Origin: Promethearchaeota archaeon
GTDB taxonomy: Archaea > Asgardarchaeota > Lokiarchaeia > Sigyniarchaeales > SOKP01
Length of the DNA stretch: 64,000 nt
Direction: 5' to 3'
NCBI GenBank assembly: GCA_048941015.1
Contig: JBHLNZ010000006.1
Location: 1-64,000, forward strand
Within the stretch, counting starts at the first letter, position 1. Each line of letters starts with the position of its first letter. Under the pieces are notes generated by a model. It did no database searches, was not told where the DNA came from, and saw nothing but the letters and a program-made list of their open reading frames with translations. The position numbers and the translations under genes are program-made. Shown here piece after piece: positions 34,705 through 50,578 of the stretch.

Positions 34705-37700
34705 TTATAAATTATTTTTTAAATGATTTATCCGCTTCTTTACAATAAAAATTGAAACAAGACTAACGATTGTAATGACGAAGATTAAGTTATATCCCGA
34801 TATTCCCCCAGGTGTAGGAGGAGAGGGTATAGAAACCACTACTTCTATACAATTTGAGAGTGTATCACCATATCTATTATGAGCAACGACTATATAGTAG
34901 TATGTACCATTTTCTAATCCAGATATCGATAAAGGACTTATGCCTGTTTGATATGCTATATTACTAAGTTCACCATTAATCTCAGATATAAAACTAATAC
35001 TTTGATACACTGAATAATTATCAGCATTCGTAGCTGAATTCCATAGCAAATCAAAATTACCATCATCGTCAGGTGTTCCAGCTAACGAAGATAATACAAA
35101 ACTTCCAGGTGGAAATTGAGGTGAAAGTAAATTAGAACTACTAAATTCTAATGAATAATTTGCTGTGATTGTAAAAATTGTAAACATGAAGGTACCATTT
35201 AGTAAAATACCTGTGGATTTTTCATACCATGCAAATCCTCCCGGATAAAGCAAGTCTTCAAGTACCCACACATTATAATCTCCATATCCCGGTATATTAA
35301 TTGCAAGCTCTCCAGTACAATTATAGATATGATCACCACTATAATATGAAGCGATAGATATTAAATCTCCAATTGAAATGTCAGTAAATATCCAAAGTGG
35401 AGTGTGTTGATTAATTCCAAAAGTAAAATTACCTTGATTATTGGTCATGATTCGGGTATACGCATCAACATCCCATGTTCCTTCAAAATAATACTCTAAT
35501 GTGGCTGTGAATTTTACGTGGAATAAACGATTATAAATATGATGTTCCGTCATAAGATAGCTATAATCTACACGTGCCGGTCCATTCAATTCTCCCGCAG
35601 ACATTAGGTAGTTAATATATAGATTATCAATAAGCTTTATTTCTTTGATTGGAACTATCTTAGTCACTTCATTGTTATCGATAAAGATCTCTCCACTTAC
35701 AGGAGGAGTATTTGCAGTAAAATTGTAGTCATCATACGATATTGGAGTAAAATTATAGGTTATAGACCTGTTCGCTCCTACATCTAAGTTAGATATTGAA
35801 GTATAATTAACTTGAACTTCATTAAGATAAAGATATAGCTCTACATCTGCTTCATCTAAAGTACCCTCGTTAAATACAGTTGCAGTAATAAGATATGTAG
35901 AATCTAGTTCGCAATATCCAGGGACTTCAACAATCAGTTTTAATTCATGGTCAAAAATCACATAATTGAAATTTGCATTAGTATCATTGAACTCAAATTC
36001 ATAAAAATTAGAACCACCATCAAAATAAAATACCCCTTCTAAAAGAAATCCTGTAGATTTCTCATATATCGCTATTCCTCCGGTTTGTGTCAAATCAATA
36101 AGTTCCAAAGCTTCTACTATACTAGTATTAGGTAATTCATAATAGATCTGTCTTGATACATTAAAAATATGATCTCCTTCACCATCTACCGCAATTGGAA
36201 CGGTATCATTTAGGTTCACATCATTAAATATCCATATAGGAGTATGATAACTATTACCGAAATAAAAATCTCCACCTGAATTTAACATTATTCTATTCTC
36301 CCCATTTTCATCCCAATAACCGTGATATAACATTCCAATATTAAGGAACCAATCAAGATGGAAGATATTGCCTGAAAACTCAGTATATTCAAAACCAGAA
36401 GGACCAATTGTTCCATCAAGATTAAGAGTGTGATTTAAATATAATCCATCAAAAAGTTTGATATCTATAATTCTTAAAATTTCAATTACTATGTTATTAT
36501 AGATAATCGTTTCATTTTCAACGGGAGGAGCATAGGCAGTAAAATTGTAAGTTCCGTACTCCGTAGGCGTCCAATTATAATTGAGTATCTCACTGTTTCC
36601 CGGATCTAAACTTGAAATAATTTTATCATTTATGATAAGTTCATTAAGGTACAGTATAAATTCAAATGTATTTTCTGTGTTATTCCCTTTGTTCGTAATT
36701 ACAGCATTTATAATATAACTATTGTTAATCTTAGGAGTACTTGGTAGATTTAAAGTTACTTCAAGATCATGTTCTGGTATCATACCACCAGTTCCTAAGA
36801 TTTGAATATCATCTACTAGCCATCCACGATAATCATTATATAAGGAATCATAGGTGTCAAAATAAAACATAAATTGAACAGAGGAATTACCACAATAATT
36901 TGAAATATTTATTGATTCCTTTTGCCAAGGAGAAATATTAGCATCAGAAATATATATCTCCTCCCAATTAAATCCATCGATTGAAATATAAACATAGGAA
37001 ACATCATAATTTGTATTAGATTCTACTTCCTTCCAGTGATAAAATTCTAACATAGCAGAATCTAAATCTGATAGATCAATTGGTATTGAAGTAAAGTTAC
37101 CAAACTCACGATATCCTGTATCAAAAGTTCCGGTTGTTTCATTTCCAAACCACATAGAATGAATGGGAGAGTAATATGGATTTGGCCACGCACTGCTACT
37201 ATTTGTTAGATGCCATAGTCCATTAATGTTTTCCCATTTAGATAGATCACTTTCGAAATCTTCATAAAATAGAGATCCCATAATCTGTACCAATTTAATC
37301 TCTTTATTATTTATTAAAATTGTTTCGCCAGAAACTGGTTGGGCATAAGCAGTAAAATTGTATGTTTTATATTCTGTAGGGAACCAGGTATAATTAATTG
37401 TTTTACTAGAGCCTACAGAAAAATCTGGGATGATTGCAGAATTTACAAGAATTTCATCCAAATATAAGTAGAAACTGACACTCGTCTCATCATTCTCACC
37501 ATTATTATATACTGTAGCATTTACAACATAAGATTCAAGAACTTCTGGATTTGATGGAACTTCCACAGAAACCCCTAAATCATGATCCAAGGTAGGATAT
37601 CTAATTGTTGCATTTCCTGTTCCTGATATCGCTTTAGCGATTAAATAATATTTTCCATTTTCTGTAGGTGTATAAGATATTACCTCATCTTCACCTAATG

Positions 37701-39948
37701 TGCTAGATGTGCTTGATTTAAGCATAATTGGTTCTCCTATTGAAGAGGGATTATTGGAATATAAATGCAAATCGAAATCTGCTCCGGTTGGAACATCTAA
37801 AGTAAATATATAATTATTTCCACTAAGTAAATTAACATAACAACCTAGGCCATGTTTGGTAAAGGGATCTTGATCACTACTTGATATTAACGAACTCTTT
37901 AGGGATCCTAAAGTAAGTTGTTGAGTGTATGCTTCTATTGCAATATCAAGATTAGTTCTTCCATACCCTTCATGTACATCTTTACCACCCCTATCTAACG
38001 TGGGTGAATATTCACTATATGGTGATTCTCTCTGCAATGGATAAGTTTCAGTGGCAGACATCAACATTAATGATTTAACTCTTTTTGCTTCTGTTCCTGT
38101 AAAACCCCAACTTTGCATACCACCCATAGCTTCAATTAACACATTTACTGCACCAGCTACAGCAGGGGTGGCCATTGAAGTACCTTGAGCTCCATATAAA
38201 TCATCAATATAACCTTCAGTAGGATATCCTCCTTCAGCATCATTATCATTTGTATCTGCAGAATACATTTGAAGATTATAAAAACTTCCCCCTGGAGCAG
38301 TAATATCTGGTTTCATTGTACTGCCTGTATAGGAATTACCACCTTGACTACTATAAGATGTTATTTGATCATCAATGCTCATCGAAGCTACTGTAATAAC
38401 ATTATCAGCATCTCCAGGAGAACCAATATGATTGAATATTGGGCCACTATTACCAGCAGCAACAACAGTAACTATTCCATTTTCAACCGCATTATTTACT
38501 GCACTAATCATAGATGTTTGACCCGATGGACCCCCTAAACTCATAGATATAGTTGTTATATTATAGTTATTTTTATTACTTATAACCCAATTAATACCAT
38601 CAATTATATCAGATAGAGTTCCTGACCCATATTGGTCTAAAACCTTAACTCCTACTAAGTGAGCATCGGGGGCGATTCCAATCCATGGATCTCCTGATCC
38701 GTAAAGATTAGGACTGAAAGGCCAATGAATTTCGCTTCTAAATTTAATATCCCAATCATATACATAGCCATCATCACCATCATCCAAAATTAAATCAAAT
38801 CTAAAGGAATATAACCCTAAATCCGTACTTGGAACGGTATATGAGAGATTGTGCATCCAAGTATCCGAATCATTAATATAAGAAGCTACTAGTGTATCTT
38901 CAAAATATAAATAGCCATAAAAATCGACATCATCCGGACTTGGAGTGGAATCTTCAAATTCAGTCGGAATTTCAATCACTCCTGGATTAGTTACATTAAA
39001 CCTTGCCCAATTTACTTCATACGTACCCGGTGAGTCTAAACCTGTATTCCAAGAACTCAATTCATAGGATGCAGTTGATACGCTTCTATCTAAATAATCA
39101 TAATTTGGAGTTCCTATTCCCGTAGCTATCCCTGAACAATGAGTACCATGAGAATTATCATCATATGGTGTGGATAAGCTATTAACCATATCTTGCCAAC
39201 CAATTATTTTATAATTAGGATCCCCCTCTGAATATCCAAGACCAAAAAAATCATGAGAATCATCAATACCAGTGTCAATAACTGCTATTGAGCTAAAAAA
39301 ATCACCATCATAGGATAGATTATTCCAAACATATGGACGAAGATTCATATTACGTGTAGTGTAATATAATTGAGCTTCATAGAGTGCATCTTCTTCAATT
39401 ATATAAGGAATATTATTAATATTTAGTTCATTACTGAATTCAAATAATGTATCATAATCAATCGATCCAGCAAAACCGTTAATAGCTTTTTCATAAGTTG
39501 ATGTGACCAAGCCTCCCAATTTTTCAAAAAGCTCTTTTATCGAATTATAATTTCCTTCTGGAAAAGATATTACAACTGGAATGCTCTCTTTCTTAATAAT
39601 TATTTCGTCTCTCTCCAAATGGACAATTGTTCCTTCTGTATACTCGGTTTCACTTCTTTCATTGTCGTTAGAATATGAAATAAAACCATATTCTGCGATA
39701 AGTTCTAAATTTTTTTCAAAGTGGTCATTTATCCCATTTTTGTCCTTATCAACGGATTTAATTAAATCATTCCATTCTAATAACGAGTTCTGTTCAAAAT
39801 TTAATAAATTTAGGTCAATTTCTTGAATCTCTTCTGAATTTCTATTAATTGATTTTGTAATTAAAGGATTGGTAAAAAACGGGTAAATAATATTTATACT
39901 TATTAAGCACAAAATTAAGCTAATTCTACTATTATTTCTTATTTGCAT
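34705..39948 (-). CDS. S8 subtilisin-like serine protease with PPC/CARDB modules and a Loki-CTERM-type C-terminal sorting signal
   Basis: Catalytic IDTG, HGTHCSG, AAGN and GTSMATP; repeated HDL.V.l..P...V.N.G CARDB-like units; C-terminus PTPGGISGYNLIFVITIVSLVSIFIVKKR. Confidence 0.92.
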   Translation of the reverse strand: MQIRNNSRISLILCLISINIIYPFFTNPLITKSINRNSEEIQEIDLNLLNFEQNSLLEWNDLIKSVDKDKNGINDHFEKNLELIAEYGFISYSNDNERSETEYTEGTIVHLERDEIIIKKESIPVVISFPEGNYNSIKELFEKLGGLVTSTYEKAINGFAGSIDYDTLFEFSNELNINNIPYIIEEDALYEAQLYYTTRNMNLRPYVWNNLSYDGDFFSSIAVIDTGIDDSHDFFGLGYSEGDPNYKIIGWQDMVNSLSTPYDDNSHGTHCSGIATGIGTPNYDYLDRSVSTASYELSSWNTGLDSPGTYEVNWARFNVTNPGVIEIPTEFEDSTPSPDDVDFYGYLYFEDTLVASYINDSDTWMHNLSYTVPSTDLGLYSFRFDLILDDGDDGYVYDWDIKFRSEIHWPFSPNLYGSGDPWIGIAPDAHLVGVKVLDQYGSGTLSDIIDGINWVISNKNNYNITTISMSLGGPSGQTSMISAVNNAVENGIVTVVAAGNSGPIFNHIGSPGDADNVITVASMSIDDQITSYSSQGGNSYTGSTMKPDITAPGGSFYNLQMYSADTNDNDAEGGYPTEGYIDDLYGAQGTSMATPAVAGAVNVLIEAMGGMQSWGFTGTEAKRVKSLMLMSATETYPLQRESPYSEYSPTLDRGGKDVHEGYGRTNLDIAIEAYTQQLTLGSLKSSLISSSDQDPFTKHGLGCYVNLLSGNNYIFTLDVPTGADFDLHLYSNNPSSIGEPIMLKSSTSSTLGEDEVISYTPTENGKYYLIAKAISGTGNATIRYPTLDHDLGVSVEVPSNPEVLESYVVNATVYNNGENDETSVSFYLYLDEILVNSAIIPDFSVGSSKTINYTWFPTEYKTYNFTAYAQPVSGETILINNKEIKLVQIMGSLFYEDFESDLSKWENINGLWHLTNSSSAWPNPYYSPIHSMWFGNETTGTFDTGYREFGNFTSIPIDLSDLDSAMLEFYHWKEVESNTNYDVSYVYISIDGFNWEEIYISDANISPWQKESINISNYCGNSSVQFMFYFDTYDSLYNDYRGWLVDDIQILGTGGMIPEHDLEVTLNLPSTPKINNSYIINAVITNKGNNTENTFEFILYLNELIINDKIISSLDPGNSEILNYNWTPTEYGTYNFTAYAPPVENETIIYNNIVIEILRIIDIKLFDGLYLNHTLNLDGTIGPSGFEYTEFSGNIFHLDWFLNIGMLYHGYWDENGENRIMLNSGGDFYFGNSYHTPIWIFNDVNLNDTVPIAVDGEGDHIFNVSRQIYYELPNTSIVEALELIDLTQTGGIAIYEKSTGFLLEGVFYFDGGSNFYEFEFNDTNANFNYVIFDHELKLIVEVPGYCELDSTYLITATVFNEGTLDEADVELYLYLNEVQVNYTSISNLDVGANRSITYNFTPISYDDYNFTANTPPVSGEIFIDNNEVTKIVPIKEIKLIDNLYINYLMSAGELNGPARVDYSYLMTEHHIYNRLFHVKFTATLEYYFEGTWDVDAYTRIMTNNQGNFTFGINQHTPLWIFTDISIGDLISIASYYSGDHIYNCTGELAINIPGYGDYNVWVLEDLLYPGGFAWYEKSTGILLNGTFMFTIFTITANYSLEFSSSNLLSPQFPPGSFVLSSLAGTPDDDGNFDLLWNSATNADNYSVYQSISFISEINGELSNIAYQTGISPLSISGLENGTYYYIVVAHNRYGDTLSNCIEVVVSIPSPPTPGGISGYNLIFVITIVSLVSIFIVKKRINHLKNNL

Positions 39949-40169: not shown

Positions 40170-40616
40170 ATGCATCCCAATACTCGCCATTATCCAAAAT
40201 ATCCACATATTGGTGTTGGAATTCTTCTAATCAGGGAAAATAGTTTGCTTTTAGTTAAAAGGAAATTTAATCCTGATGCAGGTTATTGGTCTATACCAGG
40301 TGGTCATCTAGATCTTGGTGAAAAGGTGAAAAACGCTGCAGAAAGAGAAGGTTTCGAAGAAACCGGCTTTAGAGTGCGAATAACCAAATTAGCAGGTATT
40401 ATTGATAAAATAATGTATGATTCTGAAGGGGAACTTGAATATCATTATGTTCTCATTAATTACTTTGTAGAACAAATCGAAGGAGATCATAATCAACAAC
40501 CTGTGCCAGATACAGATGCTTTAGAAGCTAAATTTGTAAAGTTTGATGATTTAAAGAGCTATAAATTGACTGAATCATTAATAGAACTTCTTAAACAATT
40601 AAAAATAGGATATTAA
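40170..40616 (+). CDS. NUDIX hydrolase (ADP-ribose pyrophosphatase-like)
   Basis: Nudix box GGHLDLGEKVKNAAEREGFEETG. Confidence 0.92.
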   Translation: MHPNTRHYPKYPHIGVGILLIRENSLLLVKRKFNPDAGYWSIPGGHLDLGEKVKNAAEREGFEETGFRVRITKLAGIIDKIMYDSEGELEYHYVLINYFVEQIEGDHNQQPVPDTDALEAKFVKFDDLKSYKLTESLIELLKQLKIGY

Positions 40617-40783
40617 GATTCTAAGATCTTTAATTCAATGAAATATAAAAAAAATATAGATTCAATAGTTATTGATTCCATTTTTATTATTTTTTATTAA
40701 ACAAAAGAATTTAATGTTTCCATAATTATTTTGATATAGAATAATATCTACTAAGTTATAATTTAAGAGATGGTTAATTAGAA

Positions 40784-42097
40784 TTGTCTACCTTAATGAA
40801 ATCTGCTAAAGCTAACATAATTACTAAAGAAATGGAAATAGTCGCCCAAAAGGAACAATTAGACGTTGATTTTATTCGAAAAGGTATTGCTAATGGACGA
40901 ATTATAATCCCAAAATCTAATAGGCGTAATACGGATCCAATAGGAATAGGAGAAGGGTTGCTTGTAAAAATAAATGCAAATATTGGTTCAAGTAAAAAAG
41001 TCTGCAATATTAATGGTGAGCTTGAAAAAGCTAAGATTGCTGTTAAGTTTGGAGCAGATACTGTTATGGATCTCAGTACAGGGGTTACAGAACAAGATGT
41101 TATAACCATAAGGAACCAGATTCTAAAAGAAATTACAGTTCCACTTGGAACGGTACCTATCTACCAATCTGCATTAAGAGCTATTGAAAAGAAAGGAGCT
41201 ATAATTAATTTTGATGAAGATGATCTTTTTAATGTAGTAGAAGAACAAGCAAAGGAAGGAGTAGATTTCTTTACGATTCATGTGGGAGTTACAAAAAATA
41301 TTGTAGATTATCTAAAAGAACATCCAAGAACGATGGGAGTTGTCTCACGTGGAGGAACTTTCCTAGCAGCATGGATTCTTGAAAATGAAGTGGAAAATCC
41401 ATTTTATAGCAATTATGATTATCTTTTAGAGATGGCGAAAGAGTATGATTTTACACTCTCACTTGGAGATGGGATGAGACCCGGTTGTATTTTTGACTCA
41501 ACAGATTATCCTCAAATTCAAGAATTGATGGAAATTTCTAATTTAGTAAAAAGAGCATGGAATATGGATGTTCAAGTAATGGTAGAAGGACCAGGACATA
41601 TTCCCGCAGATGAAGTTGAGAGAAATGTAAAAATTATGAAATCTTTATGTAATGGTGCTCCATTCTATGTCTTAGGGCCATTAGTAACTGATATTGCTCC
41701 AGGATATGATCACATTGTTAGTGCTATTGGTGGAGTCATGGCTGGTTTAGCAGGTGCAGATTATCTCTGTTATGTTACCCCTTCTGAACATTTAGCATTA
41801 CCAGATAAAGAAGAGGTTAAACAAGGAGTTATTGCATCTAAAATTGCAGCACACGCAGTGAATATTGCAAAATACGGAAAAAAGGCTTCAAATTGGGATT
41901 ATAAAATGGACATAGCCCGTAAAAATTTAGACTGGGAAGGGATGATAAAGCAATCCATCGATCCACATTTATCTCGAGAAAAACATTATCGAAATGGGTC
42001 ATTTGAAGATGATGTTTGCAGTATGTGTGGGGAATTTTGTGCTATTAAAATCCTGAAAGATGCGTTAGATAAAAAAAGGTCAAAAAATTTATTGTAA
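40784..42097 (+). CDS. thiC: Phosphomethylpyrimidine synthase
   Basis: KINANIG, DTVMDLSTG, GTVPIYQ, SRGG, EGPGH, YVTPSEHL and CSMCGEFC motifs. Confidence 0.96.
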   Translation: MSTLMKSAKANIITKEMEIVAQKEQLDVDFIRKGIANGRIIIPKSNRRNTDPIGIGEGLLVKINANIGSSKKVCNINGELEKAKIAVKFGADTVMDLSTGVTEQDVITIRNQILKEITVPLGTVPIYQSALRAIEKKGAIINFDEDDLFNVVEEQAKEGVDFFTIHVGVTKNIVDYLKEHPRTMGVVSRGGTFLAAWILENEVENPFYSNYDYLLEMAKEYDFTLSLGDGMRPGCIFDSTDYPQIQELMEISNLVKRAWNMDVQVMVEGPGHIPADEVERNVKIMKSLCNGAPFYVLGPLVTDIAPGYDHIVSAIGGVMAGLAGADYLCYVTPSEHLALPDKEEVKQGVIASKIAAHAVNIAKYGKKASNWDYKMDIARKNLDWEGMIKQSIDPHLSREKHYRNGSFEDDVCSMCGEFCAIKILKDALDKKRSKNLL

Positions 42098-42128
42098 AAT
42101 CCGCTTTTAATGGATTGAAAAGTGCTAA

Positions 42129-43526
42129 TCAATCGATTGTATCAATCAAATTAATGATCTTCTCTATTTTTTGAATCATCTCTTTGGAATTTTTTGCAAA
42201 AACTCTAATGATCGGTTCCTTTCCTACGGCACCTTTATCCCATATGATATCTGGAATATTTCCAAATTTATCGATACTATCTTTAATTAACCATTGCATG
42301 GTAGAATGTTCTCTCATTCGTACTTTATCAGGTTGAGTTTCTCTTAAGAATTCATAAGAAATTAAATCAGTATATGTTTGAATTTCCTTGATATATTTTT
42401 CTTCATATCGAAGATTTACTACAAAATTAATAGAATTATCATACTCTTTCGCTGAAAGAAGCAACCTGGCAGTATGATCTGAGGCTCCAAATTTAATGTC
42501 TCCTGACGCTTTGGGATAGCCATTAACAATTGTAATTCTACCATCAATTCCTGCAATATCTTCCTTATTTATGGCGTTTGGAAGGGAACCTGAAATGTTA
42601 GTTCTCACCTCGGGTATCAATTTAACAAACTTTTTTGAGCTAGAAAAAAAGTTATAGATCTCCTTTATCTGATTAATTACAAAAATTTCCTTTTCAGAAT
42701 AAGATAAATCAATAATTTTACCATTATCTGGTAAGTTGACAAATTTTTGGAATTTTTCATCAAAAAAGTTCTCTGCTTTCTCAATTGCTTTTAAAATAGG
42801 ATTTCCTTGAGCAAGGAATGCCGTAATTGCAGAAGAAAACACACAGCCAGTCCCGTGAATATTTTTTTTAAGATTTAATTTTCTTTTCTTAAAAAGTTTA
42901 AATTCTAGTTTGAGATTATTCCTATAGCATAATAGATCATAAATATAGTTTTTATCAATTAAACCGCCTTTAATAATAACCGCTTTCTCGCCTTTCTCTT
43001 TTCCTTTTATCGTAAACATTTTTTCAATTAGGATTTCTGTTGCTTCTTTTAACTTATGTTCGTTTTCTAATCTCAAATTCCTTAAATTCGTACTAGAATA
43101 GAATTCTGCTTCAGAGAGGTTAGGTGTAATAATTTTTAAATGAGGAAATAAACTTTTTTCTATTTCTAATTCTAAACCTTCACTTGAAAGTCTTTCTCCA
43201 GCACTAGAAATAGATACAGGATCATAAATTACATGTAGATTCTCTCTTTTAATATAATCAACAATAATATCAAGAGCTTGAACATCTGGAATCATACCAA
43301 TTTTCACATATTTTATTGGATAAACACTTAAAATTGCATCCAATTGTAAATCAAGAGTATCCGAGAGGGATTTGTATCCATGAAATTCTGTTGCCGATTG
43401 ATATGTAATTGCTGTTATAACAGAAAAAGGATGAACACCACATCTATCAAAAGTTCTAATATCTGCTTGAATTCCTGCACCAGATGTAGGATCAGCTCCT
43501 GCAATTGTTAAACAAAAATTTGTCAT
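42129..43526 (-). CDS. thiDN: Bifunctional HMP/HMP-P kinase - thiamine-phosphate synthase (ThiD-ThiN fusion)
   Basis: LTIAGADPTSGAGIQAD and HGTGC in the kinase domain; LIPEVRTN, FGASDH and GKEP in the C-terminal ThiN domain. Confidence 0.92.
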   Translation of the reverse strand: MTNFCLTIAGADPTSGAGIQADIRTFDRCGVHPFSVITAITYQSATEFHGYKSLSDTLDLQLDAILSVYPIKYVKIGMIPDVQALDIIVDYIKRENLHVIYDPVSISSAGERLSSEGLELEIEKSLFPHLKIITPNLSEAEFYSSTNLRNLRLENEHKLKEATEILIEKMFTIKGKEKGEKAVIIKGGLIDKNYIYDLLCYRNNLKLEFKLFKKRKLNLKKNIHGTGCVFSSAITAFLAQGNPILKAIEKAENFFDEKFQKFVNLPDNGKIIDLSYSEKEIFVINQIKEIYNFFSSSKKFVKLIPEVRTNISGSLPNAINKEDIAGIDGRITIVNGYPKASGDIKFGASDHTARLLLSAKEYDNSINFVVNLRYEEKYIKEIQTYTDLISYEFLRETQPDKVRMREHSTMQWLIKDSIDKFGNIPDIIWDKGAVGKEPIIRVFAKNSKEMIQKIEKIINLIDTID

Positions 43527-43592
43527 TATACAATATAGTATATATTTTTTAAATAAGTTATATATTTTCTATTCGTTTGATATTATTATTGG

Positions 43593-43638
43593 AGAGATCC
43601 AGTCTTTAGGACAACCAAATTTAGTTATTGGATACTCT
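43593..43638 (+). other. Imperfect stem-loop upstream of tnpB (candidate IS left-end hairpin)
   Basis: agag-atccagt...attggat-a-ctct forms about 11 bp with one bulge. Confidence 0.4.
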
Positions 43639-43678
43639 GTTTAGTTTTAAATAGGAACAATTCTCGAATAATACTAAA

Positions 43679-44887
43679 ATGAGATTAACTGAAATTATTC
43701 AAATTAACCATTTACGGGAATTATCAAACGTATGTCATTTAGCCAAAAATCTTTACAATATAGCTAACTGGTATATTAGGCAGGATTTTTTTAATCTCAA
43801 TAATCTTTTATCCTATTATGATTTAAATTTCATCCTTAAAGACAAATATGCTTACCAAAACCTTCCTTCTCAGACAGCACAGCAAATATTAAAAATAATT
43901 ATTAGAAATTGGAGATCTTATTTTAATGCTTTGAGGGAATATAAAAGAGATAGCAATAAATTCAAGAAAAAGCCGAATATTCCACGATATAAAAGAAAAA
44001 ATGGAGAATTTGTCACAATTTTCACCAATCAGCAATGTAGAATAATACAAGGATATTTATATTTCCCAAAAAGAGTGAATATTCATCCAATTAAAACAAG
44101 AATTACAGAAAAGCTAAAAGAAGTAAGGTTAATCCCTTTAGGAGTAAAGTATAAAGTTGAAATAGTGTATGAAAAAGAAGAGAAGGATTTTGGATTAAAA
44201 AAAGATAGAATATTAAGTATTGATTTGGGACTAAATAATCTCATAACTGCTGTAAATAATAATGGATGCAGACCATTTATTATTAAAGGTGGGATGATTA
44301 AGTCCATCAATCAATATTATAATAAACGAATAGCATATTTTAGAAGTATTGAAAATAAAAAAGGCAATTATAAAGATACCAAAAGAATTCAAAAACTTCA
44401 TATAACTAGAAACAATAAACTTATGACATTATTTCATCGAGTCTCTAAGAATGTAATTGATTATTGTATTCAAAAAAACATTGGAACTATTGTAATCGGA
44501 TATAATTTTGGTTGGAAACAGAACGTTAAAATAGGAAAAAAGAATAATCAGAAATTTGTTCAACTTCCTTTTCTGAAGCTAATGAAACAAATCGAATATA
44601 AAGCTAAATTAAAAGGAATTCAAATAAAACGAATTGAAGAATCATACACTTCCAAATGCTCTTTCTTGGATAATGAACCGATCGGAAGACATGAAAGATA
44701 TGCCGGAAAAAGAATTTTTAGAGGATTGTATAAAACTTCCAATGGTACTTTAATCAATGCAGATGTTAATGGGGCCTATAATATTATGAGAAAAGCATTC
44801 CCAAATGCCATTTCGGTTGATGGGATAGAGGCATTCGGACTAATGCCACAAATAATACAACATAATATTGTTGACACTATTATTTGA
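43679..44887 (+). CDS. tnpB: RNA-guided endonuclease TnpB (IS200/IS605 family, solo/IS1341-like)
   Basis: KNLYN, LPSQTAQQ, RuvC-I SIDLGLNN, IVIGYN..WKQ, EESYTSK and RuvC-III NADVNGAYNI. Confidence 0.93.
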   Translation: MRLTEIIQINHLRELSNVCHLAKNLYNIANWYIRQDFFNLNNLLSYYDLNFILKDKYAYQNLPSQTAQQILKIIIRNWRSYFNALREYKRDSNKFKKKPNIPRYKRKNGEFVTIFTNQQCRIIQGYLYFPKRVNIHPIKTRITEKLKEVRLIPLGVKYKVEIVYEKEEKDFGLKKDRILSIDLGLNNLITAVNNNGCRPFIIKGGMIKSINQYYNKRIAYFRSIENKKGNYKDTKRIQKLHITRNNKLMTLFHRVSKNVIDYCIQKNIGTIVIGYNFGWKQNVKIGKKNNQKFVQLPFLKLMKQIEYKAKLKGIQIKRIEESYTSKCSFLDNEPIGRHERYAGKRIFRGLYKTSNGTLINADVNGAYNIMRKAFPNAISVDGIEAFGLMPQIIQHNIVDTII

Positions 44888-44916
44888 AATAAAATGAGTA
44901 TAATCTTACTTATTTT
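44794..44916 (+). ncRNA. Putative TnpB omegaRNA/right-end scaffold
   Basis: Successive hairpins overlap the tnpB 3' end: gcatt/aatgc, ggcatt-cggact-aatgcc (44830-44847), caaataata-caaca...tgttg-acac-tattatttg (44849-44886) and aaaatgagta/tacttatttt (44891-44916). Confidence 0.55.
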
Positions 44917-45496
44917 AATGGTCTTTAACTCTATCATAAGCCCATTTAGCTTTATCCATCAATCCTAAAGCTTCATAAGATTTTGCTAAATAAAGAAAAC
45001 CATCAGGATAATCATATTTCTCTTTAACTAATTTGAATAATTGATTGATTGCTAAATCATATCGTCCTTGTAAGTAATTAATCTTTCCTCTTAAAAAGGT
45101 TATTCTTTGTCCTTTTTCGCTATTAATATTTTTATCATCATGAAAATCTAATCTTGATAATGCATAATCATACTCGTTTGCTTCAATTAATATATCAATA
45201 GACTCGGAAAATTTAAGAAAGGCTATATTATCAGCAACTTTTCCAATTTTCTGAAGAATGTCTCTTTCTAATATCTTCTTGTATTCTTGTTGTTTCTCTT
45301 TTTCTTTTTTATCAATATAAGATTTAAAATTCTTGATAATTTCCTGAGAATATGGTTCATTACATAAGGGACATCTTAAAGAATGCATTACCCATTCTTT
45401 TAAACAATTAAAATGAGTGGGATGACCATTCGGACATTCTTGATATGATTCATCTCCTTCATTAATACTCATGTGACAGATAATACATGAAGGCAT
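44915..45496 (-). CDS. RING-H2 finger plus TPR protein (putative E3 ligase)
   Basis: C-x2-C-x13-C-x3-H-x2-H-x2-C-x3-W-x6-C-P-x-C, then a coiled linker and two TPR-like repeats. Confidence 0.85.
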   Translation of the reverse strand: MPSCIICHMSINEGDESYQECPNGHPTHFNCLKEWVMHSLRCPLCNEPYSQEIIKNFKSYIDKKEKEKQQEYKKILERDILQKIGKVADNIAFLKFSESIDILIEANEYDYALSRLDFHDDKNINSEKGQRITFLRGKINYLQGRYDLAINQLFKLVKEKYDYPDGFLYLAKSYEALGLMDKAKWAYDRVKDH

Positions 45497-45598
45497 GATA
45501 ATCAGAAAACTATTTAATAAATTATAAAATTATCACTTTTAAGTCTATGTTATTACTAATAATATATTCTAGAATATTGGTTTAATAGGCGATCTTTT

Positions 45599-47167
45599 AT
45601 GTCACTTGCCAAAGAAGAATTATTTAATGAACTTCTATCAAATTTTTTAAAATTGAATGATGATTTGGAAGCTGTTATCGTCTCTGACCATCAAGGCTTC
45701 GTAATCGCTGGTGAGAAGAAAAAGAGTGTAGATTTAGAATTAGTATCAGTTCTCACAGCTCTGATAAATCCTATCTTAGAAAGAATGAGGAGTGAGTTTG
45801 CTTTCAAGAGGTTTGGGAGTGCATCTTTTGATACTGAAGAGCACCGTTTTTTATTTATTTCTATTGATGAAAATGTAACACTTAGTTTAGTCTTAAACAC
45901 TTTGGCTTCAATAGATATAATTTCACCATATGCTTTTTTTCTCGCTGAGAAAGTTGCTCAAATTATTTTCGCTCAAGAAGGAGATCAAATACAAATTACC
46001 ATCCCAAATTTTGAAATAGAAGCCAATATTTCAGAGTCTTCAGATAGAGTTAAAGAACAAATTTATCAGCTTAGGCTAGAATCTGGAAATAAATATCGAT
46101 TTAAATTTGTAATTATTGGGGACCATGAAGTTGGAAAAACCTCACTTATTCGCAGGTTTGTTGAAAATAAATTTTCTAATGATTATCGGTCAACTTTAGG
46201 CCTAAATGTAACCAGTCATTCTATTGAATTTTATGGAAATGAAGTAATCTTTGTTTTATTCGATATTGGGGCACAAGAATATTTTAAGAGGTTCAGAAAG
46301 ACCTATTATCAAGGTGCTCAAGCAGCCTTTATCGTTTTTGATTTAACTAATGAAGACTCTTTTAAAAATGTAAAAAAATGGTATAAGGAAATGCAATCTT
46401 TTATTGGAAATAGAGATATTCCAGTAGTATTAGTAGGTAATAAATCCGATTTAATAAAAGAGAGACGAGTAGAATATCAAGATGGTACAAAGTTAGTAAA
46501 TGAATTCATTGAAGAATTTTCTTCTAAGGATTTTTCATATATTGAAACCAGTGCATTAACTGGTGAAAATGTTGAAGATGCTTTTAGCCTAATCGCTTAT
46601 CATTATATAGTAAAAACAAAGGAACAAGAAGAAGAACGCCTTAAAAAAAATTTAATGAAAATTATTAACTCTATTCTTAATGAAAACAAAAAATTAATGC
46701 TTTCTTTTATAACAGAAAATCCGTATTGGAGTCCTGGCTTACAGATTTTGAATGAAATAAACAGTTTATATGAATGTGAAAAGATATATGATGATAAAGA
46801 GACAAAATACTATGAATATTCAAATGGCTTAGCAATCAAAAACTTCCTTTTTGAAAAATTCAATGTTTATGGCTCCGATGGAGTTCTCATCATTTTTGAT
46901 GCGAGAAAAAGACAAAATATTGACCCTGAATGGAAAGAAATTGTTTATAAAATTATCGATGAACTTGAAGAAAATAAGGTTGCTTTAATTGGGGTAAGAG
47001 TGCCAGAAGAAAGTAATTGGTCCAAAATTATAGAACAGTTTAATGTAAATATACGTTTAGAGAAAAAGTTTATCTCACTTTTATTTTTTAAAATAGGGTT
47101 TGAATATCGATTAGAAATTTATGATCAGCTTGAAGTAATGTTAAATAACATTAAAGATTTAAGCTGA
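45599..47167 (+). CDS. Roadblock domain - Rab-like GTPase - degenerate GTPase-like domain protein
   Basis: LEAVIVSDHQGFVIAG roadblock motif; GDHEVGKT, STLG, DIGAQE, NKSD and ETSAL; C-terminal SDGVLIIFDAR. Confidence 0.88.
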   Translation: MSLAKEELFNELLSNFLKLNDDLEAVIVSDHQGFVIAGEKKKSVDLELVSVLTALINPILERMRSEFAFKRFGSASFDTEEHRFLFISIDENVTLSLVLNTLASIDIISPYAFFLAEKVAQIIFAQEGDQIQITIPNFEIEANISESSDRVKEQIYQLRLESGNKYRFKFVIIGDHEVGKTSLIRRFVENKFSNDYRSTLGLNVTSHSIEFYGNEVIFVLFDIGAQEYFKRFRKTYYQGAQAAFIVFDLTNEDSFKNVKKWYKEMQSFIGNRDIPVVLVGNKSDLIKERRVEYQDGTKLVNEFIEEFSSKDFSYIETSALTGENVEDAFSLIAYHYIVKTKEQEEERLKKNLMKIINSILNENKKLMLSFITENPYWSPGLQILNEINSLYECEKIYDDKETKYYEYSNGLAIKNFLFEKFNVYGSDGVLIIFDARKRQNIDPEWKEIVYKIIDELEENKVALIGVRVPEESNWSKIIEQFNVNIRLEKKFISLLFFKIGFEYRLEIYDQLEVMLNNIKDLS

Positions 47168-47336
47168 TTAAGATTTTTATTAAAAAAAATTCAACAAATC
47201 TGCTTCTCTTTACCCTCTTTTAATCTTATTGAAGATAATTAATTCTTTATAAATAGCTATTTTTAATAATATGTTATGTTATTATATTGATAAGAAAATA
47301 ATAGCTTCCCATTATTCAAAAAACGAGGAGATTTTT

Positions 47337-48905
47337 ATTTCAATAAACAGAAATCAATTATTCCATGATATATTAAATAGATTTCTTGAAAGATTTTATG
47401 AATTAGAAGCAGTGATCATCTCAGATTTTGAAGGATTAATTCTTGCTGGAGAGAAGCAAAAAGGTTATGAAGATAAACTTGAAATAATATCAGTCCTCAC
47501 AACTTTAATAAATCCTGTTTTAGATAGAATTAGAAATGAGTTTTCATTTAAGAATTTTGGCACTGCTTCGTTTGATACTGAGGAACATAGATTATTATTT
47601 ATATCAATAGATGCTGAGAGAACATTAAGTTTTATTCTTAATAGTATGGCTTCCATTGAGAAAATAGCGCCTTATGGTCTTTTTTTAGCAGAAAAATCAG
47701 CACAAATTCTTAATGCTAAAGAAGATGATTTAATCCAAATTTCGATACCTGATTTTGAAAGTGAAGTTGATCGCCATCAGTCATTAAAGCAATCACTTAT
47801 TCAATCGGAGCTTGAGGAGAAAGGTACATATAGCTTTAAATTTGTAGTTGTTGGAGATCATGAAGTTGGCAAAACCTCAATTATTAGAAGATTCGTTGAA
47901 AGGAAATTTTCAGCAGATTATCGAGCCACAATTGGATTAAACATTCTAGCACATAATTTTTTCTTGGAAGGTAATGAAATTGCATTGACTTTATGGGATT
48001 TAGGAGCTCAAGAATTCTTCAAAAGGTATAGAAAAATTTACTATACTGGTGCTGAAGCTGCTTTTATTGTTTATGATTTATCTAATAAGAACTCCTTTGA
48101 AAATGTTATAAATTGGTATAATGAATTAACTGAATTTATTATAGACAAAGATATCCCTATTGTTATAGTTGCTAATAAGCTTGATTTAGCTGATAAAAGA
48201 GTTATAACTCGCGAGGAAGGATTAGAATTGATTAATAAATTGTCAGATTCAGATTCAGGATTATCCTATATGGAAACAAGTGCTTTAAGTGGTGAGAACG
48301 TTCAAGATGCATTTAAATTAATTGCTTACCATTATATTTTGAGGAGTAAACAAAAAGCGAAAGAAATCATAAAAGAGGATCTTTTCGAAGTAATAAAATC
48401 AACTTTAAAAGATTTAGTGATATTAGAATTAACCTTTATTTATGAAAATCTAAGCTGGAATCCTGGATTTCAAGTGATATTAGATATAGAAAAGTTAGGT
48501 GAATATTCTAAAATAAAGGATAATACCCTAGAAAAATTGTATGCCTATAAAAATGGTTTAATTCTAAATAATGCTACCTATGATAATTTTAACCTTAGTA
48601 ATTCTGATGGAGTTTTTTGCATTTTTGATGCACGAGAAAGAGAACATATAGATCCTAAATGGAAAGATATTCTTGTCAACATTATCCAAAAAATCCGCAA
48701 AAAGCGGGCAATAGTAGTTGGTCTTCGTGTTTCTGAGGGCACTAATTGGTCCCAGTTGATGGAAGAGTTCGAAATTGAGCAAGATCTCGAAGAAAAATTG
48801 GTATCAGTTTTATTTCTTAAAATTGGTAAAGATTATCGAGAAAAAATTTATGAACATCTAAAAGTTTTGTTAAATGCAATAGTAAATACACGCAACTTGA
48901 AATAG
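47337..48905 (+). CDS. Tandem paralog: roadblock - Rab-like GTPase - degenerate GTPase-like domain; start uncertain (ATG 47271 or ATT 47337)
   Basis: LEAVIISDFEGLILAG; GDHEVGKT, ATIG, DLGAQE, NKLD and ETSAL. Alignment to the paralog begins at ATT 47337, 6 nt after GAGGAG. Confidence 0.85.
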   Translation: MSINRNQLFHDILNRFLERFYELEAVIISDFEGLILAGEKQKGYEDKLEIISVLTTLINPVLDRIRNEFSFKNFGTASFDTEEHRLLFISIDAERTLSFILNSMASIEKIAPYGLFLAEKSAQILNAKEDDLIQISIPDFESEVDRHQSLKQSLIQSELEEKGTYSFKFVVVGDHEVGKTSIIRRFVERKFSADYRATIGLNILAHNFFLEGNEIALTLWDLGAQEFFKRYRKIYYTGAEAAFIVYDLSNKNSFENVINWYNELTEFIIDKDIPIVIVANKLDLADKRVITREEGLELINKLSDSDSGLSYMETSALSGENVQDAFKLIAYHYILRSKQKAKEIIKEDLFEVIKSTLKDLVILELTFIYENLSWNPGFQVILDIEKLGEYSKIKDNTLEKLYAYKNGLILNNATYDNFNLSNSDGVFCIFDAREREHIDPKWKDILVNIIQKIRKKRAIVVGLRVSEGTNWSQLMEEFEIEQDLEEKLVSVLFLKIGKDYREKIYEHLKVLLNAIVNTRNLK

Positions 48906-48907
48906 GA

Positions 48908-49972
48908 TTATTTTTTCAATCGTATTTTTAATTTTTCTGTTATTAAATCTCCCATCTCTTTAGTTGATAAGGTCTTTATTGTAGGATTTCTTAAATCAAC
49001 AGTTCTTCCTTCTTCAAGTGCTTCTTCTACGGACTTTTCAATCTCTTTCGCTATTACCAAAGATTGAAATGACTCTTGTATCATTAACTTAACACTTAAT
49101 ATTGCCCCAATCGGATTTGCTATGTTTTTTCCTGCGATGTCTGGTGCTGAACCATGAATCGGTTCATACATTGAGATCTTACCGGGATTGATATTCCCAC
49201 TAGCAGCCATCCCAAGACTTCCAATTAAAAATGCCCCTTCATCAGAAATAATGTCGCCAAACATATTCCCAGTAACAACCGTTTGATAATTATATGGAGC
49301 TCTAATAAGCCATTGACAGAATGCATCGATATAAATATCTTCCATTTGTATCTCAGGATACTCGTGGCCAATTTCGTGAAATATCTTTCTCCATAACTTA
49401 CTCGGATTTAGGAGGTTGGCTTTATCAACCGAAGTAATTTTGGAATGACCCCTTTTTTTAGCAAATTCAAAAGCAAATCGAATAATTCTCTCACAACCAT
49501 TTCGAGTATATAACATAACATTATGTGCTTCGTTATCTGAATATTCTCCAACATTTTTATATAACCCTTCAGTATTTTCTCTTACGAAAGTAATATCAAT
49601 TCCTTTCCCAATAAATTCTTCTTTAAGAGGACATCTATCCCATAATGATTTATATAATTTTATTGGTCTGAGATTTACATATAAATCTAATTCTTGACGA
49701 ATTTTTAGTAAAGCTGATTCAGCAACTCCAGGAGGTAAATCAGGAAGTCCAATCGCTCCAAACAATAAAGCATCAGATTTCCTTATAATATTAAACGATT
49801 TTTCAGGGAGACTGATTCCATACTTTTTTAAAACAGCTCCACCTGCAGGAGCTTCTTTAAAATCAAATTCAAATTCTGAATAATCCGAGATTAATTTAAG
49901 AGTTTTAATACCTTCCTCTACAACCTCAGGACCGACACCATCTCCTTTACAAATAGAAATTATTTTTTTCAT
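48908..49972 (-). CDS. leuB: 3-isopropylmalate dehydrogenase (isocitrate/isopropylmalate dehydrogenase family)
   Basis: GDGVGPEV, NLRP, RENTEG, VDKAN, NMFGDIISD and EPIHGSAPDIAG. Exact substrate specificity is not provable from motifs. Confidence 0.75.
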   Translation of the reverse strand: MKKIISICKGDGVGPEVVEEGIKTLKLISDYSEFEFDFKEAPAGGAVLKKYGISLPEKSFNIIRKSDALLFGAIGLPDLPPGVAESALLKIRQELDLYVNLRPIKLYKSLWDRCPLKEEFIGKGIDITFVRENTEGLYKNVGEYSDNEAHNVMLYTRNGCERIIRFAFEFAKKRGHSKITSVDKANLLNPSKLWRKIFHEIGHEYPEIQMEDIYIDAFCQWLIRAPYNYQTVVTGNMFGDIISDEGAFLIGSLGMAASGNINPGKISMYEPIHGSAPDIAGKNIANPIGAILSVKLMIQESFQSLVIAKEIEKSVEEALEEGRTVDLRNPTIKTLSTKEMGDLITEKLKIRLKK

Positions 49973-50578
49973 TAAAATCAACCTAAAATGATTAATTATA
50001 TACTAATAACGCACTTAATAAATTAATTAAAGTTTAGTTCAAAATTAATATAAATTAAAATTACAAAAAATTATGAAGGATGAAGAGTCTATTAGAAAAT
50101 TTTAAAGAGTTATTATTAATGGGATCTGATCCTTCTTTTATTCATCCAAGTGCATATCAAGCTCCGTTAAAAATTACAAAAAGATCATGAAATCGAAATA
50201 GGCGGCTAACTTGAACCCTTAATTGGAAAATGCTATCAAATATGTCTAATGGGATAATATCGTAAGAGTAAAGGATATAGAATACTTTCTGAATCCTCCT
50301 AAAGAATCATTAAAATAAATTTTTAGGAAGATTAACAATTATTGATTACCTGAACTTCGTAATTAGGATTTAAGATAATAAGTTTTGAATATTTAACTTC
50401 CTCGCTTACCATCTTTAAAATTTAAAGAAATCTCAGATCTAATAGCTCAGACCTACTACTATCGGTTCATTTTTAAAACTTCGTAATTTTGTCGATCGGA
50501 TAAAATTATTAACCGAAACATATTCTATCGAAAATTTAACGCAATTTTTAAATATTTGAAATCATAAATATGATATAA

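Follow-up and report, generated by a model that had tools for sequence, protein, structure and literature searches.

In a 64,000-nucleotide stretch of a Lokiarchaeial genome (Promethearchaeota archaeon, GenBank assembly GCA_048941015.1, contig JBHLNZ010000006.1, positions 1 to 64,000; hereafter the window), two tandem genes encode paralogous proteins, GTPase 1 and GTPase 2, and a divergent gene beside them encodes a small protein with a RING-H2 domain and tetratricopeptide repeats (TPRs), the RING/TPR protein. We consider it probable that the paralogs belong to a small-GTPase family confined to a few families of Lokiarchaeia, in which a roadblock domain, a Rab-like G domain and a dead Arf-like G domain follow one another in a single chain. 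This architecture would elaborate the roadblock–GTPase fusions of Asgard archaea, and the RING/TPR protein would be tied to it through gene order alone. An earlier reading of the same DNA, the original prediction, had placed here a RING-H2 and TPR gene, a 102-bp divergent spacer and two tandem paralogs of about 520 amino acids (aa), and had given both paralogs a roadblock domain, a Rab-like G domain and a third alpha/beta domain taken as a pseudoGTPase, in a domain order inverted relative to that of the Rag GTPases. The three open reading frames (ORFs; Table 1) lie where it put them, and each of its domain assignments was borne out by the searches and models described below.

The host genome comprises 3.59 Mb in 144 contigs, is estimated at 95% completeness and contains 47 small-GTPase (G-domain) matches; the window lies on its contig C118. 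Aligned end to end, the two paralogs share 51% identity, and their close homologs are labelled as proteins of Promethearchaeota, Lokiarchaeota, Hodarchaeota or Thorarchaeota metagenome-assembled genomes (MAGs). For the comparison among genomes, we refer to the window's own family as f1, to its sister family as f7, to the MK-D1-type family as f2 and to a further family as f3. The 12 genera of f1 are g1, g2 and so on to g12, the loci compared are L001, L002 and onwards, and the window's genome is G000.

By both Pfam and fold, the G domain is Rab-like and not Rag-like. Pfam Ras matched the two paralogs at E values of 3e-44 and 2e-43, and the closest folds to the G domain of GTPase 1 are Rab8, Rab11, Rab1 and a Thorarchaeota Rab. 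Pfam Gtr1_RagA (PF04670) found no match in either paralog at E 0.1 or below; weak precomputed PF04670 matches exist on some homologs. All 37 family members examined, from both paralog lineages, retain the GxxxVGKTS motif, the switch-I Thr, the G3 Gln, NKxD and ETSA[LK], and on these motifs the domain looks catalytically intact. The G3 motif (46262-46279 in GTPase 1; 48009-48026 in GTPase 2) reads DxGAQ in all f1 members and DxGGQ or DxGSQ in more distant ones. There is no C-terminal prenylatable Cys, a hallmark of Rabs: the G domain runs into a helix and a folded domain, and the protein ends in ...NNIKDLS.

That folded C-terminal domain is predicted to be a pseudoGTPase, with an Arf-like G fold that lacks the nucleotide-binding motifs. 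Modelled alone, it reached a predicted local distance difference test (pLDDT) score of 91.8. Its top structural match is the Asgard protein HodArfR1 (Z 13.9, root-mean-square deviation 3.4 A, 162 of 183 residues), followed by Arf, Arl and Sar1 at Z 11.6-12.4 and by two Lokiarchaeota Rag-like GTPases at Z 10.5-10.7; Foldseek returned Arf1 at E 2e-6. The alignment of the domain contains neither the P-loop GxxxxGK[ST] nor NKxD, with W-x-P-[GA] where GK[ST] would stand and IG[IVL]R at the site of NKxD. Pfam did not detect the domain. When the dead and live G domains of the same protein were compared by hhalign, the result was 1.4%, with no significant sequence similarity, so that only the fold argues for calling it a pseudoGTPase. 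When 1.84 billion proteins were searched exhaustively, no more than 42 representative clusters contained the domain; the full-length matches among them all share the ~520-aa architecture, and most of the others are short fragments. Literature searches for a pseudoGTPase or a RING–GTPase link in Asgard archaea returned nothing specific.

The N-terminal domain was assigned from predicted topology and from profile comparison. In the AlphaFold2 (AF2) model of GTPase 1, its helices (a) and strands (b) follow the order a-b-b-a-b-b-b-a, as in roadblock domains. Pfam (PF03259, Robl_LC7) gave no match to the N-terminal domain of either paralog. The sole match among PDB sequences in a single-sequence search was 7yh1 Roadblock/LC7 (E 0.0084), and a roadblock-domain profile gave one weak match to PDB sequences, poorer than that of the single sequence (E 0.075). 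When 27 N-terminal domains were compared by hhalign with 14 proteins of the host genome that Pfam recognises as Robl_LC7, the result was 94.3% (E 9.5e-8, 97 columns), against 0.1-0.2% for control profiles. Conservation within the domain is highest in helix 2 and strand 3, which is only suggestive of dimerisation.

The family has a narrow distribution. The three-domain protein was detected (E <= 1e-80) in 97 of the 102 f1 genomes sampled; 19 genomes representing other families of the class yielded no match at that threshold. A search with the C-terminal domain alone gave 42/42 in f1 and 1/1 in f7, and found nothing in f2 (0/14) or f3 (0/4). Orthologs of GTPase 1 are 57-70% identical across genera, and the family is therefore clearly under selection. 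The locus holds one gene in most genera and two in g1 and g2. In a maximum-likelihood tree, the copies proximal to the RING gene in g1 and g2 group together (support 96/82), as do the distal copies (92/95), which points to a single duplication in the common ancestor of g1 and g2, with the copies in tandem ever since. One g2 genome (G001) has kept only the distal-type copy, which lies beside the RING gene.

Several other family members differ from the two in the window. Proteins of one sub-branch end in an array of about 5-8 TPR repeats (G054, L025:5687-8155, 822 aa; P0127, 894 aa). We considered these fused arrays as a Rosetta-stone link to the RING/TPR protein and rejected them as such, finding only generic TPR similarity (19% identity, hhalign 82%). 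In G091, a 958-aa ORF (L026:2016-4892) runs in frame from residues ~21-483 of the proximal copy into the part of the distal copy that begins at residue ~85. It was discounted as evidence for a heterodimer: it could be a real deletion-fusion or an assembly collapse of the tandem paralogs, and the genome is fragmented. The window's genome itself holds a further family member, cut by a contig end (C67:12-914, minus strand), and two shorter roadblock-GTPase proteins of about 330-350 aa without the dead domain (C58:83242-84183 and C12:12302-13267).

We envisage that the roadblock domains of two chains would pair, by analogy with MglB, Ragulator and Rag, to form a dimer with two G domains. The dimer may ancestrally have been a homodimer, and both homodimers and heterodimers could form where the gene was duplicated. 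The Rab-like domain would cycle between GTP-bound and GDP-bound states, with the roadblock serving as a regulatory platform either in cis or across the dimer, and the dead G domain may provide a docking surface that is independent of nucleotide.

The neighbouring RING/TPR protein is a genuine RING-H2 protein with conserved E2-contact positions (I6, W35 and P43). Its match to Pfam zf-RING_2 (PF13639) scored 30.6 bits, above the cut-off of 27.3, and its ligand spacing, C4-x2-C7-x13-C21-x3-H25-x2-H28-x2-C31-x10-C42-x2-C45, fits the RING-H2 pattern C-x2-C-x(9-39)-C-x(1-3)-H-x(2-3)-H-x2-C-x(4-48)-C-x2-C. Neither the eight zinc ligands nor W35 and P43 vary among 24 orthologs and homologs. The profile of these 24 sequences matches solved RING-H2 ligases (RNF165/ARK2C, HRD1, Arkadia, RNF38 and EL5) over residues 3-51 at E 1e-6 to 1e-4, consensus TPR proteins over residues 105-189 at E 2e-17, and MamA at E 1e-9; single-sequence matches to Pfam TPR_16 and TPR_11 stayed below their cut-offs. 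In the host genome there are four matches to UQ_con (E2), a cluster of several ubiquitin-like genes on contig C29 and some five RING genes. Ligase activity of the RING/TPR protein is plausible in a genome with ubiquitin and E2 genes; its own gene lies away from the ubiquitin/E2 cluster on C29.

Within f1, the RING/TPR gene has a single-copy ortholog in 93 of 102 genomes. Among the matches listed, a family GTPase lies divergent from the RING gene, 99-258 bp away (median 182 bp), in at least 81 of the 94 genomes with a RING match. In g4, it is a third, more divergent GTPase copy that adjoins the RING gene, so that the adjacency occurs in all 12 genera. In G064, which has no RING match, the contig ends 175 bp beyond the proximal GTPase. 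Because the short divergent spacer is conserved and shared throughout f1, co-expression of the RING gene and the first GTPase gene is plausible there. The core of the spacer (about 45513-45543) is A/T-rich and resembles two back-to-back TATA-like boxes; the string ATAATAAATTATAAAA ... CT(A)TTTTTAAG recurs in g1, g2, g6, g11 and g12, as judged by eye only and in an AT-rich genome.

Outside f1, a RING/TPR homolog occurs in two f2 genera (L001:3474-9900 and L002:3360-8262), tail-to-tail with a ThiBPQ-like ABC transporter. The binding protein of this transporter scores well over the NCBIfam thiamine-SBP subfamily cut-off (167-175 versus 93.4 bits), and its fused permease best matches ThiP. The homolog has 243 aa in one genus; in the other, it makes up the C-terminal portion of a 699-aa protein that has another RING at its N-terminus. 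The three-domain GTPase type was not found in f2. A 502-aa gene divergent from the f2 RING protein was a GTPase candidate by its size and proved to be an MFS transporter.

The original prediction had seen in this arrangement a roadblock-dimerised hetero-GTPase switch, possibly co-regulated with a ubiquitin ligase. The domain reading and the head-to-head order, which is conserved in f1, are the parts of that interpretation that stand; the specificity of the adjacency does not, given the collinear thiamine genes, the unlinked genes in f7 and the failure to find the GTPase in f2. A functional or physical link between ligase and GTPase is hinted at by gene order alone, and a number of observations weigh against making more of it, or bear on the proposed switch itself. 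A whole block, NUDIX-ThiC-ThiD/N-RING-GTPase(s)-isopropylmalate dehydrogenase (IPMDH), is collinear across the 12 genera (40170-49981 in the window; loci L003 and L005-L024), and at 19 of 22 loci the next gene downstream of the RING gene, co-directional with it and 33-110 bp away, is thiN or thiDN. The thiamine genes thus share the order with the RING gene equally well, and the RING–GTPase adjacency is not specific evidence. In the one f7 genome analysed, a clear RING/TPR ortholog (E 4e-42) and a three-domain GTPase of 34% identity are on different contigs, and the other gene is absent from the roughly 9-10 kb or more of flank examined on each side. In G013, a 100% complete genome of the window's genus, the RING match (C37:17002-17522) carries internal stops beside an intact GTPase that is 83% identical to GTPase 1. 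As for the switch, the G3 Ala sits at the canonical Gly position (Ras Gly60), with the Gly shifted one residue earlier, and by analogy with Ras G60A an Ala at G3 could impair switching. The packing of the domains against one another is uncertain in the full-length AF2 model of GTPase 1 (pLDDT 73; predicted template modelling score, pTM, 0.52).

It is quite possible that the RING/TPR protein is unrelated to the GTPases, being either tied to the thiamine genes or a general-purpose small RING protein, with the adjacency reflecting inherited gene order in one family. Such an explanation would account for the collinear block and the closely spaced, co-directional RING and thiN genes, for the thiamine-type transporter beside the f2 homolog in two genera, and for the unlinked RING and GTPase genes of f7. 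Counter to this, the f7 RING ortholog has no thiamine neighbours, the f2 orientation is convergent and not operonic, and the junction between RING and GTPase is the only one in the block never seen broken within f1; moreover, we know of no precedent for a RING/TPR protein in thiamine metabolism. The RING/TPR protein could instead serve the adjoining GTPase or GTPases as a dedicated E3 ligase or adaptor, its TPR region binding the GTPase, perhaps in one nucleotide state, and its RING recruiting an E2 for modification of that GTPase or of its partners, much as eukaryotic RING ligases act on Rag and Rab GTPases. We regard this as unlikely. The head-to-head order and short spacer persist in 12 of 12 f1 genera despite thiD/thiN splits, insertions before IPMDH and a TnpB insertion, the RING ligands and E2-contact positions are conserved in a genome with E2 and ubiquitin genes, and some family members have a TPR array of their own (P0127, G054). 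However, the same synteny logic ties the RING gene to thiN/thiDN, both genes are present yet unlinked in f7, the f2 homolog stands beside a transporter in a family where the GTPase type was not found, and the fused TPR arrays resemble the TPR region of the RING protein only generically. The f1 genome G113 (98% complete), which lacks both the RING and the GTPase genes, could be counted in favour of a dedicated ligase, but joint loss is expected of neighbours because they can go in one event.

A different question is whether the paralogs are obligate partners in an asymmetric heterodimer, on the model of RagA/B-RagC/D or Gtr1-Gtr2 but with the roadblock at the opposite end of the chain. In favour of this, both lineages have been kept in tandem since the ancestor of g1 and g2, roadblock is a dimerisation module, and an operon pair of Rag-like GTPases in MK-D1 is predicted to heterodimerise (PMC10933270). 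The distribution of the genes argues otherwise: in most genera the locus carries just one gene, no second family member occurs in at least 8 genomes that are 97-100% complete, and G001 has the distal type without its partner. The paralogs have also diverged little in kind. Only 3 of 522 positions are conserved within but different between the two lineages (F/L, T/I and E/D, all conservative); none of the three falls within helix 2 or strand 3, the elements through which roadblocks usually dimerise, and both copies have all G motifs. GTPase 1, as noted, has no match to Gtr1_RagA. We therefore find such a heterodimer quite improbable as a description of the locus, and the single-copy genomes together with the few fixed differences make an obligate Rag-like heterodimer unlikely as the ancestral state, contrary to the hetero-GTPase originally proposed. 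The pattern fits a homodimer, or a protein able to pair either way. Taking the ligase and heterodimer proposals together, one might suppose that the RING/TPR protein is the dedicated ligase or adaptor of a roadblock-Rab-pseudoGTPase switch, a prokaryotic GTPase-E3 circuit predating pairs of the Rag-RNF152 type, in which the tandem paralogs are an early step towards Rag-like heterodimers; this seems to us very unlikely.

Our preferred reading, of a roadblock-GTPase family with an added dead G domain, can be set against known systems. Eukaryotic Rags are regulated by RING ligases, and Rag and Gtr proteins resemble those of the window in having G and roadblock domains in one chain and in occurring as paralog pairs. 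The window proteins differ from them in their inverted domain order, Rab-like G domain and extra dead G domain, in that the paralogs are barely differentiated, and in the existence of single-copy genomes. With the inverted order and no Gtr1_RagA match, the window GTPases fall outside the Rag/Gtr family. In MglA-MglB, a bacterial Ras-like GTPase with its roadblock-domain GAP, a roadblock is likewise functionally paired with a small GTPase, and a roadblock dimer is the regulatory platform; here, by contrast, roadblock and GTPase are fused, with a canonical catalytic Gln and Rab-like switch regions. A G fold without nucleotide-binding motifs, beside or in place of an active G domain, is also found in p190RhoGAP pG1/pG2, CENP-M, Miro and EngA/Der. 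None of these has a detectable sequence relationship with the dead domain of the window family, whose nearest folds belong to the Arf family, including an Asgard Arf. The RING/TPR protein shares with RNF165/ARK2C, Arkadia, HRD1, RNF38 and EL5 the C3H2C3 pattern and spacing, the Trp after ligand 6 and the Pro after ligand 7. Unlike these ligases, it is very small, has a short TPR tail, is encoded away from the ubiquitin/E2 cluster and is a putative ligase.

The nearest relatives in architecture come from MK-D1 (Ca. Prometheoarchaeum), in which roadblock (RB) domains are fused to GTPases in both orders, RB-GTPase and GTPase-RB, and an operon pair is predicted to dimerise through the RB domains (Tran et al. 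2024, PMC10933270). As in the window, a roadblock is found N-terminal to a small G domain of the Ras superfamily, in a Lokiarchaeial genome rich in small GTPases, and in both cases the genes are paired and RB-mediated dimers have been proposed. The window family differs by adding a long helix and the C-terminal pseudoGTPase domain (found in 0/14 of the MK-D1-type f2), and its G domain is Rab-like, whereas the fused forms of MK-D1 are grouped as Rag/Arf-like (PMC10933270).

Much of the debate on the origin of eukaryotic membrane and signalling switches turns on the small GTPases of Asgard archaea and on the roadblock and longin proteins that partner them. We found no description in the literature of the combination of a roadblock, a live Rab-like domain and a dead Arf-like domain, in that order. 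Should the RING/TPR neighbour prove to be the ligase of the GTPase, it would be the first case of archaeal ubiquitin-type control of a small GTPase; at present the order of the genes offers a hint of this.

Table 1. Coordinates of the RING/TPR gene, the two GTPase genes, their domains and neighbouring genes in the window
Feature	Position	Strand	Basis
Gene for RING-H2/TPR protein, 193 aa, putative small E3 ligase or adaptor	44915..45496	-	ORF, Pfam
RING-H2 domain, residues 3-46	45359..45490	-	ligands C4 C7 C21 H25 H28 C31 C42 C45, plus I6, W35, P43
TPR region, residues ~100-190, about 2.5-3 repeats	44927..45199	-	ortholog-profile matches
Divergent spacer, 102 bp	45497..45598		sequence
GTPase 1, 522 aa, RING-proximal paralog: roadblock, Rab-like G and predicted pseudoGTPase domains	45599..47167	+	ORF, Pfam, AF2
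Roadblock/LC7 domain of GTPase 1, residues 1-125	45599..45973	+	AF2 topology, hhalign
Rab-like G domain of GTPase 1, residues 165-335	46091..46603	+	GDHEVGKTS, switch-I T199, FDIGAQE, NKSD, ETSAL
Predicted pseudoGTPase domain of GTPase 1, residues 364-521, after long helix (325-363)	46688..47161	+	predicted fold
GTPase 2, 544 aa as called, distal paralog, same three domains	47271..48905	+	ORF, Pfam, alignment
IS605 OrfB/TnpB gene between thiDN and RING gene (context, outside the module)	43679..44887	+	Pfam OrfB_IS605, Cas12f1-like_TNB
ThiD-ThiN fusion gene (context)	42129..43526	-	Pfam Phos_pyr_kin and ThiN

The start of GTPase 2 deserves a comment. Its homology to GTPase 1 begins at 47337, and the 22 N-terminal residues as called (47271-47336) are unconserved. 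In four genomes of the same genus, no ATG precedes the homologous part of the distal copy, and the true start of GTPase 2 may therefore be a non-ATG codon near 47337.

On the other side of the RING gene, the TnpB gene at the junction with thiDN occurs in the window only. Nothing is inserted at this junction in 21 related loci, which indicates that the insertion is recent; it interrupts what was probably a RING-thiN co-transcription unit. ThiD and ThiN themselves are fused in some genomes and split on opposite strands in others. Upstream of the block lies a 1747-aa ORF (34705-39948, minus strand), parts of which match at 37-39% in two related loci.

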